This document shows, piece after piece, positions 3,633-8,813 of a stretch of DNA of 33,122 nt (its first letter is position 1; each line of letters starts with the position of its first letter). Below the pieces are notes generated by a model. That model was not told the origin of the DNA, made no database searches, and was given only the letters and a program-made list of their open reading frames with translations. The stretch is from a virus. The stretch lies in UHGV virus genome UHGV-0150051. The stretch is one strand, 5' to 3'. The position numbers and the translations under genes are program-made.

Positions 3633-5910
3633 AGCCTCCGGGCGTTTTGTCCCTCCGTCAGCATTTGCCGCAGGCACCGGTAAGACGTTTACCGGTGCTT
3701 ATGCATGGAACGCGTCACGCGAGGCCGTCGGGCGCGAAAGACCCCTTACACGTGACGAGATGCGTCAGGTGCAAGGTGTTTTATCCACGATTAACCGCCT
3801 GCCTTACTTTTTGCGCTCGCTGTTTACTTCACGCTATGACTACATCCGGCGCAATAAAAGCCCGGTGCACGGGTTTTATTTCCTCACATCCACTTTTCAG
3901 CGTCGTTTATGGCCGCGCATTGAGCGTGTGAATCAGCGCCATGAAATGAACACCGACGCGTCGTTGCTGTTTCTGGCAGAGCGTGATCACTATGCGCGCC
4001 TGCCGGGAATGAATGACAAGGAACTGAAAAAGTTTGCCGCCCGTATCTCATCGCAGCTTTTCATGATGTATGAGGAACTCAGCGATGCCTGGGTGGATGC
4101 GCATGGCGAAAAAGAATCACTATTTACGGATGAGGCTCAGGATCACCTGTATGGTCATGTTGCTGGCGCTGCACGAGCTTTCAATATTTCCCCTCTCTAC
4201 TGGAAAAAATACCGTAAAAGACAGATGACCACGAGGCAGGCATATTCTGCCATTGCCCGTCTGTTTAACGATGAGTGGTGGACTCATCAGCTTAAAGGCC
4301 AGCGTATGCGCTGGCATGAAGCGTTACTGATAGCTGTCGGGGAGGTCAATAAAGACCGTTCTCCTTATGCCAGTAAACACGCCATTCGTGATGTGCGTGC
4401 GCGCCGCCAGGCAAATCTGGAATTTCTTAAATCGTGTGACCTTGAAAACAGGGAAACCGGCGAGCGCATCGACCTTATCAGTAAGGTGATGGGCAGTATT
4501 TCTAATCCTGAAATTCGCCGGATGGAGCTGATGAACACCATTGCCGGTATTGAGCGTTACGCCGCTGCAGAGGGTGATGTGGGGATGTTTATCACGCTGA
4601 CCGCGCCGTCAAAGTATCACCCGACACGTCAGGTAGGAAAAGGCGAAAGTAAAACCGTGCAGCTTAATCACGGCTGGAACGATGAGGCATTTAATCCAAA
4701 GGATGCGCAGCGTTATCTCTGCCGTATCTGGAGCCTGATGCGCACGGCATTCAAGGATAATGATTTACAGGTCTACGGTTTGCGTGTCGTCGAGCCACAC
4801 CACGACGGAACGCCGCACTGGCATATGATGCTTTTTTGTAATTCACGCCAGCGTAACCAGATTATCGAAATCATGCGTCGCTATGCGCTCAAAGAGGATG
4901 GCGACGAAAGAGGAGCCGCGCGAAACCGTTTTCAGGCAAAACACCTTAACCGGGGCGGTGCTGCGGGATATATCGCGAAATACATTTCAAAAAACATCGA
5001 CGGCTATGCACTGGATGGTCAGCTCGATAACGACACCGGCAGGCCGCTGAAAGACACTGCAGCGGCTGTTACTGCATGGGCGTCAACGTGGCGCATCCCG
5101 CAATTTAAAACGGTTGGCCTGCCGACAATGGGGGCTTACCGTGAACTACGCAAATTGCCGCGCGGCGTCAGCATTGCTGATGAGTTTGACGAGCGCGTCG
5201 AGGCTGCACGCGCCGCCGCAGACAGTGGTGATTTTGCGTTGTATATCAGCGCGCAGGGTGGGGCAAATGTCCCGCGCGATTGTCAGACTGTCAGAGTCGC
5301 CCGTAGCCCGTCGGATGAAGTTAACGAGTACGAGGAAGAAGTCGAGAGAGTGGTCGGCATTTACGCGCCGCATCTCGGCGCGCGTCATATTCATATCACC
5401 AGAACGACGGACTGGCGCATTGTGCCGAAAGTTCCGGTCGTTGAGCCTTTGACTTTAAAAAGCGGCATCGCCGCGCCTCGGAGTCCTGTCAATAACTGTG
5501 GAAAGCCTGCCAGCAGTGATACTTCGTTACTGGCTCCCACGCCTTCTGAACACGCCGCAGCAGTGCTTAATCTGGTAGATGACGGTGTTATCGAATGGAA
5601 TGACCCGGAGGTCGTGAGGGCGCTAAGGGGCGCATTAAAACACGACCTGAGAACGCCAAATCGTCAGCAAAGAAACGGAAGCCCGTTAAAACCGCATGAG
5701 ATAGCGCCATCGGCCAGACTGACTAGGTCGGAACGAATGCAAATTACCCGTATCCGCGTTGACCTCGCTCAGAACGGTATCAGGCCGCAGCGATGGGAGC
5801 TTGAGGCGCTGGCGCGTGGCGCGACGGTAAAGTTTGACGGACGAAAGTTTATATATCCAATAAGTGGTGAGTGGAAGCAGTTTTTTAGTGGCTTTGATCT
5901 TTTTAAGTAA
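3622..5910 (+). CDS. A: Replication initiator A (rolling-circle HUH endonuclease)
   Basis: Long ORF; I place the start at the in-frame ATG 3622 (MAVKASGRF...), not the upstream ATG 3580 that overlaps the preceding ORF. Contains HUH-like PHWHMMLF and paired active-site tyrosines in YIAKYISK. Confidence 0.9.
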   Translation: MAVKASGRFVPPSAFAAGTGKTFTGAYAWNASREAVGRERPLTRDEMRQVQGVLSTINRLPYFLRSLFTSRYDYIRRNKSPVHGFYFLTSTFQRRLWPRIERVNQRHEMNTDASLLFLAERDHYARLPGMNDKELKKFAARISSQLFMMYEELSDAWVDAHGEKESLFTDEAQDHLYGHVAGAARAFNISPLYWKKYRKRQMTTRQAYSAIARLFNDEWWTHQLKGQRMRWHEALLIAVGEVNKDRSPYASKHAIRDVRARRQANLEFLKSCDLENRETGERIDLISKVMGSISNPEIRRMELMNTIAGIERYAAAEGDVGMFITLTAPSKYHPTRQVGKGESKTVQLNHGWNDEAFNPKDAQRYLCRIWSLMRTAFKDNDLQVYGLRVVEPHHDGTPHWHMMLFCNSRQRNQIIEIMRRYALKEDGDERGAARNRFQAKHLNRGGAAGYIAKYISKNIDGYALDGQLDNDTGRPLKDTAAAVTAWASTWRIPQFKTVGLPTMGAYRELRKLPRGVSIADEFDERVEAARAAADSGDFALYISAQGGANVPRDCQTVRVARSPSDEVNEYEEEVERVVGIYAPHLGARHIHITRTTDWRIVPKVPVVEPLTLKSGIAAPRSPVNNCGKPASSDTSLLAPTPSEHAAAVLNLVDDGVIEWNDPEVVRALRGALKHDLRTPNRQQRNGSPLKPHEIAPSARLTRSERMQITRIRVDLAQNGIRPQRWELEALARGATVKFDGRKFIYPISGEWKQFFSGFDLFK

Positions 5911-6090
5911 TTGCCTTAGAATACCCACGTTACCGCTTGGGAAATCTACCTAGCAATGCTCTTAGTATTAGCTTTATACAAAGGGTATAAAGGCTGCCAT
6001 TGGCAACAATGGTGCCAGCATGGAGATAATCTCATGTTAAGGTTAGTGAATGTACGACAGTACAACCGCTACCGCTTTGGGCGCTGGGAG

Positions 6091-6115
6091 ACGGTGCGTA
6101 AGCACCGTCGTTCTT
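6091..6115 (+). terminator. Hairpin (acggtgc-gtaa-gcaccgt) with weak T-tract, about 180 nt downstream of A
   Basis: 7-bp perfect stem with a 4-nt loop followed by cgttctt; orientation and function uncertain. Confidence 0.3.
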
Positions 6116-6137
6116 ACCCGAATCGGTAATATGCGGC

Positions 6138-8345
6138 CTAAGCGGTAACATTTACCTCTTCTTCACCCATCATTGTTAAGTAATGTTTCTCATCACCAGT
6201 CATTCTGAATATTTTGTGCAAGAGTTCTAAGTATTTCTCAGGTTCAATATCGCCCATATCTGTTATGTTTATTGCGTCGGAGTGAGAGCCTCTGTTTATA
6301 TATCTGTAAAAGGCACGGAAATGGCTGTTATTTTCATCATTTGTTAATTCAGTAAGCTTTGCCTCTAATGCGTCAGTTCTATGAACAAATGCAAAGTAAT
6401 ACTCAAGTATATTTCTCATAATATTGGGGATTATTATTTTGTTGATTTTTTTCTCTTTTGCATCTTTTAATACTTGCCAAAGGGATTGGTATTCATTTTG
6501 CACACTTTTTTTATCTATAGCACTAATGATGCTAAATTCATTTTTATTTATTCTGCCAAGAAAGTAGTCACGTTTAAAATTTATTCCTTTTTTAGAGGCG
6601 AGTTTTATTAACTCATGGAAGAAATAAAGATTATGGGTGAGGATTATTATTTTTGATGAAATGCCTTTTTCAATTATGTCATGATGGATCATGGATGCTA
6701 TGTCGAAAACATAGTTTTGAGATAAACTTGATATAGGATCATCTATAACTATGAGTTTATCACGCATATCAGTATCATTTTCATTTGTTTTACCCTTGCA
6801 ACATTCTAAAAAATATAGAAACGTTATTAATGTTTTTTCACCTTCGCTTAATGACCGATATACATCTTGTTTTCTATTGTTTCCATCGCGGGATATTATA
6901 TACTTATCTTTGAGTTCGGCGTGTTTATCAATGCTAAAACCAGAGATGCCAAGAAATTTAAGTCGTGAGTTTATTGCATCTATTGTTGCATCTACACTTG
7001 ATGTTTTATTTCTTAGTTCATTGATTTCATTTGTGTTGATCTCTTCTTTTCTTTTTATTTCCTGCATGAAGGATGCAGCGTTTTCATATTTTTCTTGAAA
7101 GTTTCTTTCGCAGTCTGATAGTATTTCAAATTCCGCGCTACATAAGTCTCTGATTGCTGCCCACATCTTTTCGCGAATATCTATTTCGCTATTATTAAAT
7201 CTTTTTACTTTGTCATTGAACTCGTTAATTTTATTGTTGTATTGTTCTATATCTTCTAATAGTTTTTCCTCTATCGACTTTTCAAACTCCAGCACAATGC
7301 TTATAGATGGATTCTCTATTTTATTATCCAATAGTTTAATGTTTTTTTCTGCAATAGTTTCTAATGCCTTAACATATGAAAGACTTTTATCTTTTTCGTC
7401 TTGGTTTATCACCTCACATGATAAAATGTTACTCTTTATTTCTTCATGATGATTTTTAATGGCATTATCATAAGATAGTTTTATTTGTTGTATTTGATCT
7501 ACTTTTCTTGAGTATGTTTCATCAAAGATAGATTCAATGGCTTTAATAAAATTATCATCTATTGTGTCCCTTTGGCAAAATGGACAAATTTCTCCATTTA
7601 AATATAGCTCTTTGCCTTGTTTAATCCAATCAATATTTTGTAGCTCTTTTATTGCTTCAGATAAATAGCTGTTGCTAGAGTCAATAATTGGTGTGGATAA
7701 TGTTTTTTGAGTTTCTTCAGATAAAACATATCCTTTATAAGGAGTTATCAGAGGTATTTCTTTTCCTTTAAACTCGAGAAGTTTGCTATAAGATTGTATT
7801 AATGATTTTATATCAATATCAGTTTGTGGAGTATACTTTTTTAGATGGTAATAGAAAGTGGCTTTGCTTCCTATTTGACCTTTCATTAATTGTTTTAATT
7901 CTGAACTTCTTATGTCTTTGGTCTTATTCCATATGGAATTTATGCATTCTTGCTCTTTTTTGTTTTTCGCTTCATGGAGTTTTTCGATAAATTCTTTTTT
8001 TTCTTTATGCTGATGTGCTAGTGATTTGTTTAGCTCTTCTTTTTCAGATAGTATTTTTTCAATTTCTGCATTTTTTTGACTGAGGGTAAATATACCTTTT
8101 TGCTCTTTTGCATTATAAAAATTATCTTCTATATATTTTGAGTTGTAGACTAGGGTTCGATAATTATCGATGGGTTCGCATACACATTCCTTATAGGCGG
8201 TGTCTTTAGGATTGTAAAAATAATTTGATATGGTAGATTTTCCACAACCATTTTGCCCATACAATATGTTTATTTTTTTGGATAAATCTAACTCAGTAAA
8301 ATATTCTTTATGATAGCTTGTTACGTTTTTGAGTTTTAATTTCAT
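6138..8345 (-). CDS. Rad50/SMC-like ABC ATPase with long coiled-coil insert and C-terminal domain of unknown function; candidate single-gene anti-phage defence (RloC-like?)
   Basis: 735-aa ORF, visibly AT-rich against the backbone. Walker A GQNGCGKST (res 30-38), ABC signature-like LSEGEK (499-504), Walker B LIVIDDP (531-537), H-loop LTHN (569-572). About 400 K/E-rich residues lie between Walker A and the signature; CPFC at res 254-257 (nt 7575-7586). Good RBS (GAGGG) upstream of the ATG. Confidence 0.85.
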   Translation of the reverse strand: MKLKLKNVTSYHKEYFTELDLSKKINILYGQNGCGKSTISNYFYNPKDTAYKECVCEPIDNYRTLVYNSKYIEDNFYNAKEQKGIFTLSQKNAEIEKILSEKEELNKSLAHQHKEKKEFIEKLHEAKNKKEQECINSIWNKTKDIRSSELKQLMKGQIGSKATFYYHLKKYTPQTDIDIKSLIQSYSKLLEFKGKEIPLITPYKGYVLSEETQKTLSTPIIDSSNSYLSEAIKELQNIDWIKQGKELYLNGEICPFCQRDTIDDNFIKAIESIFDETYSRKVDQIQQIKLSYDNAIKNHHEEIKSNILSCEVINQDEKDKSLSYVKALETIAEKNIKLLDNKIENPSISIVLEFEKSIEEKLLEDIEQYNNKINEFNDKVKRFNNSEIDIREKMWAAIRDLCSAEFEILSDCERNFQEKYENAASFMQEIKRKEEINTNEINELRNKTSSVDATIDAINSRLKFLGISGFSIDKHAELKDKYIISRDGNNRKQDVYRSLSEGEKTLITFLYFLECCKGKTNENDTDMRDKLIVIDDPISSLSQNYVFDIASMIHHDIIEKGISSKIIILTHNLYFFHELIKLASKKGINFKRDYFLGRINKNEFSIISAIDKKSVQNEYQSLWQVLKDAKEKKINKIIIPNIMRNILEYYFAFVHRTDALEAKLTELTNDENNSHFRAFYRYINRGSHSDAINITDMGDIEPEKYLELLHKIFRMTGDEKHYLTMMGEEEVNVTA

Positions 8346-8631
8346 TTTATCCCTCTTTTTATTCTTTTTATATTTAGCCTTAAGTGTTCGAGGTTGCCTT
8401 CCTCAACGATAGAGATCTAACCTAACTTTTTGATTTATTCAAGAGAATTTAGTGAGTTATATGTAAAGATGTGGATGCTTAGCTATGTGGTTGGGGGTTA
8501 TTTCAGTATGAATTCATTTGATGCATCATTTTGCATGTACCTGTTAGGCATTTTCTAACTTTGCAGTGTCAGAACTGGCGTACTTTAGGCCATTCATGCA
8601 AGTGCATTAAAACCGCCCCATTAAGCGGGCG

Positions 8632-8650
8632 GGCGAGGCGGGGAAAGCAC
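8632..8650 (+). other. cos: cos site (19-nt cohesive end sequence GGCGAGGCGGGGAAAGCAC)
   Basis: Exact match to the P2 cohesive-end sequence as I recall it, between the cargo gene and portal gene Q where P2 cos lies. Confidence 0.7.
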
Positions 8651-8791
8651 TGCGCGCTGGCGGTGTTGCTGATTTTATTTTTTCAGCGTCTCAGCGCGTC
8701 GTGACGGCGCTTAGTCTGTCCGTTGGGCGTTGGTTTGCCTGCGGGCTGTTTTGTGCGGTGGTGAGTGTGTGAGGGCGTGATGACGGGATGT

Positions 8792-8813
8792 AAAAAAGCC
8801 GCCCGCAGGCGGC
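8792..8813 (-). terminator. Rho-independent terminator downstream of Q (minus strand)
   Basis: gccgcc-cgca-ggcggc hairpin preceded on the plus strand by AAAAAA (a U-tract after the hairpin on the minus strand), directly after the Q stop. Confidence 0.55.

Follow-up and report, generated by a model that had tools for sequence, protein, structure and literature searches.

The closest described relatives of the protein studied here are the RloC anticodon nucleases, a family whose CxxC "zinc hook" was described in 2008 (PMC2610378). In the Geobacillus kaustophilus enzyme (GkaRloC), hook mutants are hyperactive, and the C291G substitution frees the nuclease from its requirement for ATP and DNA; linear DNA activates the enzyme better than circular DNA, and cleavage occurs 3' and then 5' of the wobble base (PMC2610378, PMC3458546). 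The RloC screen of Davidov and Kaufmann used three criteria, namely ABC motifs, a CXXC and the anticodon nuclease (ACNase) triad (PMC2610378). This triad, Arg-X3-Glu-X36-52-His, is shared by RloC and PrrC, and each of its residues is essential in GkaRloC (PMC2610378). Table S1 of the same study lists as an RloC orthologue the Escherichia coli APEC O1 protein YP_852004, which has 738 residues and is flanked by genes labeled "phage replication initiation" and "capsid" (PMC2610378).

We analyzed a 33,122-nucleotide stretch of viral DNA (UHGV-0150051, referred to below as the window) and focused on a 735-residue open reading frame (ORF) on its minus strand, in which a sequence-only reading had picked out a CPFC motif as a possible Rad50-type zinc hook of the kind that RloC uses. 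We conclude that this ORF is RloC-family cargo of a prophage hotspot and that its CPFC is the family's CxxC, likely a two-chain Zn2+ half-site that restrains the nuclease; we assign this reading a probability of roughly 0.7. The ORF and its motif are as follows.

6138..8345, minus strand: 735-residue ORF, an RloC-family fusion of an ABC-ATPase and a HEPN anticodon nuclease (RefSeq WP_023146974.1, annotated only as "AAA family ATPase")
7575..7586, minus strand: CPFC, putative zinc-hook half-site, invariant in 225/225 aligned sequences and aligning on the CPVC of the P. furiosus Rad50 hook (6zff, 1l8d)

The reverse complement of 7575..7586, TGT CCA TTT TGC, translates to CPFC at residues 254–257, in agreement with the earlier assignment of the motif to these positions. 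That reading had called the motif the only closely spaced CxxC of the coiled-coil insert; in fact no second CxxC occurs anywhere in the protein, whose further cysteines are C34, C54, C56, C134, C310, C402, C412, C515 and C516. The description of its location as near the midpoint was fair, as it lies 0.47 of the way from Walker A to the ABC signature and 0.44 of the way along the helical insert (residues 89–466). On composition only (11 Cys in 735 residues), the random expectation of at least one CxxC is 0.14 for the whole protein and 0.07 within the insert, so that the presence of a CxxC is by itself weak evidence and not significant. We judged the motif to be non-random because of its conservation across the family.

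For this purpose, 80 homologues were gathered, and a profile search of 1.84 billion cluster representatives returned 13,400 relatives at E ≤1e-3 and 4,551 at E 1e-30. Conservation was scored in a MAFFT alignment of 225 full-length sequences, among them 148 representatives of 50%-identity clusters, with a median identity to the query of 32% and a minimum of 19%; counts out of 225 below refer to this alignment. C254 and C257 are both kept in every aligned full-length homologue in each of three alignments (28/28, 75/75 and 225/225), and the family alignment that had been proposed as a check on the hook thus left both cysteines invariant. The motif reads CPFC in 210 sequences, CAFC in 6, CPLC in 5, CGFC in 2, and CEYC and CEFC in 1 each. 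The conservation of the two cysteines equals that of S500 in the ABC signature and H571 in the H-loop (225/225 each) and is marginally higher than that of the Walker A lysine K36 (223/225). Invariance over 225 such diverse sequences indicates purifying selection on the motif across the family. Upstream of CPFC, W240 (223/225) and G244 (222/225) are nearly as well conserved, and residues ∼215–275 form the most conserved block of the whole insert. Besides C254 and C257, no position within residues 85–470 carries Cys or His in at least 50% of the 225 sequences, and the only conserved acidic positions in this range are D239 (186/225) and D275 (201/225). A single chain thus contributes no more than two conserved thiols as ligands, which is compatible with a half-site to which a partner chain adds the rest.

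Kinship with RloC, the family named in the sequence-only reading, was borne out by the remainder of the protein, which carries all three features used in the Davidov and Kaufmann screen and has a 58%-identical orthologue among those listed. The motifs and domains outside the insert, together with the ribosome-binding site, are located as follows.

8351..8355, minus strand: Shine-Dalgarno GAGGG, 5 nucleotides upstream of the ATG at 8345, read from the sequence
8235..8258, minus strand: Walker A GQNGCGKS, residues 30–37 (K36, 223/225)
6837..6851, minus strand: ABC signature LSEGE, residues 499–503 (S500 and E503, 225/225)
6738..6755, minus strand: Walker B and D-loop LIVIDD, residues 531–536 (D535 and D536, 224/225)
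6633..6635, minus strand: H-loop (switch) histidine H571 (225/225)
6141..6518, minus strand: C-terminal HEPN-type anticodon-nuclease domain, approximately residues 610–735, with the triad R644, E648 and H688 and the match to the PADLOC PrrC model
6414..6416, 6402..6404 and 6282..6284, minus strand: triad codons for R644, E648 and H688, respectively

The Pfam AAA_13 model matches residues 16–713 (E 4.9e-104), and the PADLOC family PDC-S06, like the other PDC families an untested candidate, matches with E 4e-254. A match to the PADLOC PrrC model covers residues 434–716 (E 3.4e-16). Within the nuclease domain, R644 is conserved in 224 of 225 sequences, E648 in 217 (Asp in 7 others), S687 in 220 and H688 in 224, and the spacing R644-x3-E648-x39-H688, with S687 before the His, fits the published R-X3-E-X36-52-H, in which the His often follows a Ser. 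The length of 735 residues falls in the RloC range of 658–897, and the neighboring genes encode the P2 replication endonuclease and portal, in keeping with the usual absence of restriction-modification linkage in RloC. A largely helical insert (residues ∼89–466) splits the ATPase and holds a central CxxC loop, as in RloC. Homologues named by JGI as "wobble nucleotide-excising tRNase" are 28–31% identical over 99% coverage. By sequence, the 735-residue ORF is thus a member of the RloC family. It does not belong to PrrC, given that an insert of ∼380 residues is present and no hsd genes neighbor it.

The placement of the motif was examined in AlphaFold2 models built with a 75-sequence alignment, one of the full-length protein (mean pLDDT, predicted local distance difference test, 82.5) and one of the insert alone (87.1), which agree in secondary structure. 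In these models the insert begins with a helix at residues 93–141, followed by six short helices (143–248), a 15-residue loop (249–263) and helices at 264–273, 276–309, 315–344, 356–401, 403–448 and 451–464. The CPFC lies in the 249–263 loop, flanked by helix 238–248 on one side and helices 264–273 and 276–309 on the other. The parts of the insert map as follows.

7923..8069, minus strand: ascending stalk helix, residues 93–141 (AlphaFold2 DSSP; antiparallel coupling with 392–468)
7473..7715, minus strand: hook module, residues 211–291, the most conserved insert block, a helical hairpin whose arms run antiparallel around the CPFC loop
7557..7601, minus strand: non-helical loop LNGEICPFCQRDTID, residues 249–263, helix reversal (AlphaFold2 DSSP, two independent models, pLDDT ∼78–82)
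7143..7520, minus strand: distal helices 276–309, 315–344 and 356–401 plus the tip loop 345–355 with K342, P346 and S347 (AlphaFold2; weaker residue coupling)
7281..7313, minus strand: tip loop, residues 345–355, between helices 315–344 and 356–401
6954..7139, minus strand: descending stalk helices, residues 403–464 (AlphaFold2 and residue coupling)

Residue coupling was assessed by mean-field direct coupling analysis (DCA) of residues 85–470 in 179 low-gap sequences (effective number, Neff, 154) with gap columns removed. A first mean-field run, dominated by gap-rich columns, was discarded, as was mutual information with average product correction, in which the clade-marker positions 89, 150, 226, 450 and 467 dominated. 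The stalk served as a positive control: 19 of the top 200 pairs joined residues 86–155 to 392–468, compared with 4.8 expected (p 4e-7). The hook hairpin (210–248 versus 264–300, i+j 492–512) held 11 of the top 200 pairs versus 1.8 expected (p 3e-6), in a band that was picked after the top pairs had been seen. The strongest pair in the insert, 218–281, falls in this band and shows salt-bridge swaps. Segments 211–238 and 266–291 are coupled in antiparallel register, and their reversal point, (i+j)/2 = 246–256, coincides with the CPFC loop. Weaker antiparallel pairs link 276–309 with 315–353 and 315–346 with 348–401, and the pair 196–381 shows a charge swap. A crude heptad-periodicity scan, too coarse to serve as a coiled-coil prediction, was strong at 93–141 and 358–470 and had its minimum at ∼246–260.

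The suggestion that CPFC sits where the helices reverse was thus upheld by the modeled loop and by the DCA reversal at ∼246–256, and the structural check that might have found the motif inside a globular domain instead found it in an inter-helix loop. These data support the view that CPFC marks a local reversal of the helices and is not enclosed in a globular domain. The earlier description of the insert as a coiled coil stood in part: the modeled insert is helical and has an antiparallel stalk, but it is not a plain two-helix coiled coil. In its chain topology, the ascending arm 89–199 pairs with the descending 467–374, and beyond these lie the arms 211–248, 264–309, 315–344 and 356–373. Judged from this topology only, the CPFC loop would lie in the distal part of the insert and is possibly its most distal point. 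For the hook module against the tip, the upper stalk or the lower stalk, the numbers of DCA pairs per block matched expectation, and the position of the module along the stalk can therefore not be read from covariation. The region of loop 345–355 carries a conserved K..NPS motif (K342 219/225, P346 195/225, S347 181/225).

Two further features of the models were observed. The K..NPS loop is also distal by chain topology and may share a surface with the hook module. In the nuclease domain, the segment around S687-H688 (residues 686–696; 6258..6290, minus strand) is the sole internal stretch with pLDDT <50, which would fit an active site that becomes ordered only on activation or dimerization, as in other HEPN RNases.

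We compared the hook module with known structures by searching a profile of residues 222–300, made from 25 diverse family members, against 177,635 distinct PDB sequences. Ranks 1 and 2 were crystal structures of the P. furiosus Rad50 hook (6zff, E 0.018; 1l8d, E 0.029), in which CPVC is matched by CPFC and the aligned stretch extends 45 residues into the descending helix. The scores were marginal (∼16 bits) and came largely from the C-P-x-C columns, so this link to Rad50 is suggestive only. The third match was 3zq6, deposited as a putative arsenical pump-driving ATPase, which we take to be of the Get3 type, with a CxxC that binds zinc across a dimer interface. Further down came CPFC-bearing zinc ribbons within single chains, among them ribosomal protein L44e, and the thioltransferase 1kte (E 1.1). 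In Foldseek searches with the full model, the best PDB matches of the head were Rad50 (7zr1, 9bi4, 9q9h and 5da9), followed by SMC heads and Lamassu LmuB; these matches carry no information on the hook. When the insert alone was used for fold searches, generic coiled coils were all that came back, so that these searches were non-discriminating, and a PDB sequence search with the whole protein gave no match at E ≤1 and hence no solved RloC relative.

The protein resembles Rad50/SbcC in having C-P-x-C at the predicted turn of two antiparallel helical arms, between the Walker A and signature motifs of an SMC-like head. It differs from them in its far shorter insert, which lacks a uniform two-stranded coiled-coil architecture, in the HEPN RNase domain fused at its C terminus, and in a sequence similarity that is marginal (E ∼0.02). 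No Mre11/SbcD partner gene is adjacent to the RloC gene and the effector is a fused HEPN domain, and so the protein is no Rad50/SbcC orthologue. It may nevertheless use the same hook principle.

Compared with GkaRloC, the protein has the same order of ABC-ATPase head, CxxC-bearing helical insert and C-terminal anticodon nuclease (PMC2610378, PMC3458546), and both match Pfam AAA_13. A comparison based on published landmark positions rather than on a sequence alignment pairs R692/E696/H737 of GkaRloC with R644/E648/H688, K44 with K36, C291 with C257, and D572 with D535, so that the landmarks are similarly spaced in the two proteins. GkaRloC is longer (804 versus 735 residues), and the window protein is prophage-borne. 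The two also differ in hook context, which is CPFCQ..TI....F.....FDETY here and H..K.ECAFCG...W..L..HF in the Gka type, as machine-read from the supplementary alignment. Sequences with the CAFC/CGFC context of the Gka type are only ∼18–22% identical to the query. The 2008 supplementary alignment holds a sequence with a window-like hook context, GSDSRCPFCQNTLDDEFKKELERYFDDTF, alongside the Geobacillus type ...ECAFCG... (PMC2610378), and the RloC family as published therefore spans both subtypes.

A nearer relative is the orthologue of APEC O1. In NC_008563, a gene for 738 residues has the replication endonuclease gene on one side and those for portal, terminase and scaffold on the other; this is WP_000423308.1 (APECO1_RS04465), which we equated with YP_852004 by length and flanks. 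Its full-length identity to the window protein is 58%; it too has CPFC at residues 254–257, and it occupies the same slot of a P2-like prophage with shared flanking DNA. It is a diverged allele of 738 residues, present in 44 of 5426 complete E. coli genomes as against 30 for the window allele, and its DNA resembles that of the window allele in a mosaic way (76–80% in the 3' third, 67% in the 5' part). Anantharaman et al. (2013) set a prophage "APECO1_4465" ABC-HEPN group, possibly the same protein as the APEC O1 orthologue, apart from RloC proper.

More distant systems share parts of this architecture. PrrC likewise joins an ABC-ATPase to a HEPN anticodon nuclease with an R..E..H triad, whereas it has no coiled-coil/CxxC insert and is silenced by its type I restriction-modification locus (PMC2610378, PMC3458546); there are no hsd genes in the neighborhood of the RloC gene. 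P2 Old is an ABC-ATPase fused to a nuclease from the same P2 immunity hotspot, but its effector is TOPRIM and it has no hook; according to a 2026 preprint, Old cleaves tRNA on sensing aberrant DNA. Many LmuB proteins of Lamassu carry CxxC hooks on SMC-like defense ATPases, and LmuB was among the fold matches noted above. LmuB acts with separate LmuA and LmuC proteins, whereas here sensor, hook and HEPN effector lie in one polypeptide.

In the mechanism that we favor, a Rad50/SMC-like ABC-ATPase head, split by the helical insert of ∼380 residues, would act on the HEPN-type anticodon nuclease predicted at its C terminus. Two chains would clasp one Zn2+ through C254 and C257 of each, four cysteines in all, as in the Rad50 hook, and by analogy with Geobacillus RloC this joint would hold the nuclease silent. 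DNA ends at the ATPase heads, together with ATP hydrolysis, may then release the nuclease, which would excise the wobble nucleotide of tRNA, as the Geobacillus enzyme suggests, and stop translation. A P2 lysogen might thereby abort a superinfecting phage. The idea of a Rad50-type zinc hook as used by RloC is supported by the invariance of the cysteines, the helix reversal and the RloC membership, with zinc binding only putative. Several caveats apply. In purer fractions, Zn2+ inhibited wild-type GkaRloC, its hook mutant and PrrC alike, and double-strand breaks in vivo failed to activate an Acinetobacter orthologue (PMC3458546). What has been published in favor of a zinc hook in RloC is mutagenesis data of 2008–2012. 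Finally, the insert as modeled is a stalk with a distal helical module and not the uniform two-stranded coiled coil of a Rad50 hook.

This last point bears on two other ways of reading the motif as a metal site. The RloC "hook" could be part of a distinct distal module of ∼80 residues (211–291, with W240, G244, F274 and D275, near the K342/P346/S347 tip loop) that works as an intradimer latch or trigger sensor and not as a Rad50-like apex; one version would have the insert bent back at an elbow, with the zinc-clasped module separating the HEPN domains until it is opened by a phage factor or by DNA ends. The activation of the nuclease by hook mutations would agree with this. We regard it as unlikely, though worth bearing in mind. 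A site within a single chain is a still more doubtful proposal. Here CPFC would belong to an intramolecular structural metal site or knuckle that stabilizes the distal module (211–291 and the 342–347 tip), with D239, D275 or C54 of the head as the other ligands, and would have no role in dimerization. The setting of the motif in a conserved module of ∼80 residues made of short helices, not in a plain coiled coil, is in its favor, as are the conservation of D239 (186/225) and D275 (201/225) nearby, the presence of C54 in 200/225 sequences, and the several lower hook-profile matches that are single-chain CPFC zinc ribbons such as L44e. Yet a third or fourth Cys or His is conserved nowhere in the insert, and the two aspartates are less conserved than C254 and C257; Asp is moreover an uncommon ligand in structural Cys sites. 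C54 was ruled out as an obligatory third ligand, as the 25 of 225 sequences that lack it retain the CxxC. The best-ranked profile matches, in turn, are without exception CxxC zinc sites between subunits: the Rad50 hook takes ranks 1 and 2, and 3zq6, taken to be Get3-type, rank 3.

The same profile search touches on a role for the cysteines without metal. CPFC is the active-site motif of pig thioltransferase (1kte, a weak match at E 1.1), and a redox dithiol/disulfide switch of the glutaredoxin CPxC type, sensing oxidative or thiol stress and gating the nuclease, would equally predict the altered regulation of the GkaRloC Cys-to-Gly hook mutants (PMC3458546). The better-scoring profile matches are zinc sites, however, and no redox partner gene lies nearby. 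In the AlphaFold2 models the surroundings are all helical, with no thioredoxin-like strands, and CPFC lies in mid-loop rather than at the start of a helix. Thioredoxin-fold CxxC sites lie at the N terminus of a helix. We consider such a switch highly improbable. The protein might also be an RloC-like ATPase whose nuclease domain or hook no longer functions, a decaying moron in which CPFC is kept only by descent, and the modeling of the catalytic His loop 686–696 at pLDDT <50 could be taken in this sense. But the reading frame is unbroken and is preceded by a good ribosome-binding site, every catalytic and ATPase residue is present, the gene is 98–100% identical in the 10 listed carrier genomes, and invariance over 225 diverse sequences implies purifying selection, and we give decay very little credence. 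Thus, a two-chain zinc half-site that restrains an RloC nuclease remains the reading that we prefer.

As for the genomic surroundings, the whole window represents a P2-like E. coli prophage with genes for an integrase, a repressor-like helix-turn-helix protein and cox, followed by small genes, gpA, the RloC gene, and the portal, terminase, scaffold and capsid genes. The RloC gene lies between the replication endonuclease (gpA) and portal genes, has no partner gene, and has a guanine-cytosine (GC) content of 30% compared with 50% for the window. It is a single-gene, low-GC cargo at the P2 tin/old position, a site described in the literature as a P2 immunity hotspot. The main text of two P2-hotspot papers (PMC9122126 and PMC13586616) contains no mention of RloC, AAA_13 or PDC-S06.

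Among 5426 complete E. coli genomes, 30 carry the cargo. The query also took in conserved P2 flanks, and 2153 other genomes match it at least in part. Of the 30 carriers, 10 were listed; in these the RloC gene is 98–100% identical, and the full ORF is annotated. Relatives in phages occur in an Enterobacter P2-like phage (60% identity) and in Streptococcus prophages, where the gene is annotated "translation-disabling ACNase." Another E. coli relative, P0053 (729 residues, 40% identity; gene at 5001..7190 of its locus), is not in a P2 prophage. Its locus is an integrase island adjoining smpB, where it stands beside HxsD and two radical-SAM genes, indicating that the family moves between different mobile defense islands.

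Several further observations concern the DNA around the gene. When window positions 5425..8787 were compared with the Shigella/E. coli allele, the 3' third and the gpA flank were 76–80% identical and the 5' two-thirds 67% identical at the DNA level; the upstream intergenic segment 8594..8787 was 93% identical. This mosaic similarity of two RloC alleles suggests recombination within the gene. Two GC-rich terminator-like hairpins (8613..8632 and 8798..8813, minus strand) lie between the portal and RloC genes. Transcription of the RloC gene probably starts from a promoter of its own in 8346..8612, although this interval showed no strong sigma-70 match.

Two other low-GC ORFs were noted elsewhere in the window. 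The ORF at 24434..25552 (minus strand; 372 residues, ∼36% GC) matches the family-2 glycosyltransferases (PF00535, E 1.6e-28) and has no PADLOC match. By ORF order, this second cargo gene apparently lies between the tail-fibre and tail-sheath genes, which is the position of the P2 Z/fun hotspot, and it may be a gene for surface polysaccharide modification (seroconversion). The ORF at 18071..18856 (minus strand; 261 residues, ∼35% GC) is apparently located, by position, among tail and baseplate genes; it had no Pfam match above the cutoff (weak DUF6535, E 8.5e-4) and no PADLOC match.

The CPFC finding is correct but not new, being a rediscovery of the defining feature of the RloC family described in 2008, and nothing in it would surprise a specialist. 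The window protein itself is an unstudied RloC member; the 2008 list already included an allele of it from this prophage locus with 58% identity. An entry known as "AAA family ATPase" in RefSeq and as candidate PDC-S06 in PADLOC can now be named an RloC-type anticodon nuclease with a regulatory hook, and as a small RloC native to E. coli it is a convenient test case for the zinc-hook idea. The cargo known from the P2 tin/old hotspot is thereby extended by a predicted abortive-infection gene that would target tRNA. The same hotspot alternately holds Old, in which the ABC-ATPase is joined to TOPRIM, and RloC, in which it is joined to HEPN and whose family is thought to respond to DNA ends. The presence of two unrelated effectors on related sensors suggests that these are interchangeable modules with a similar output.

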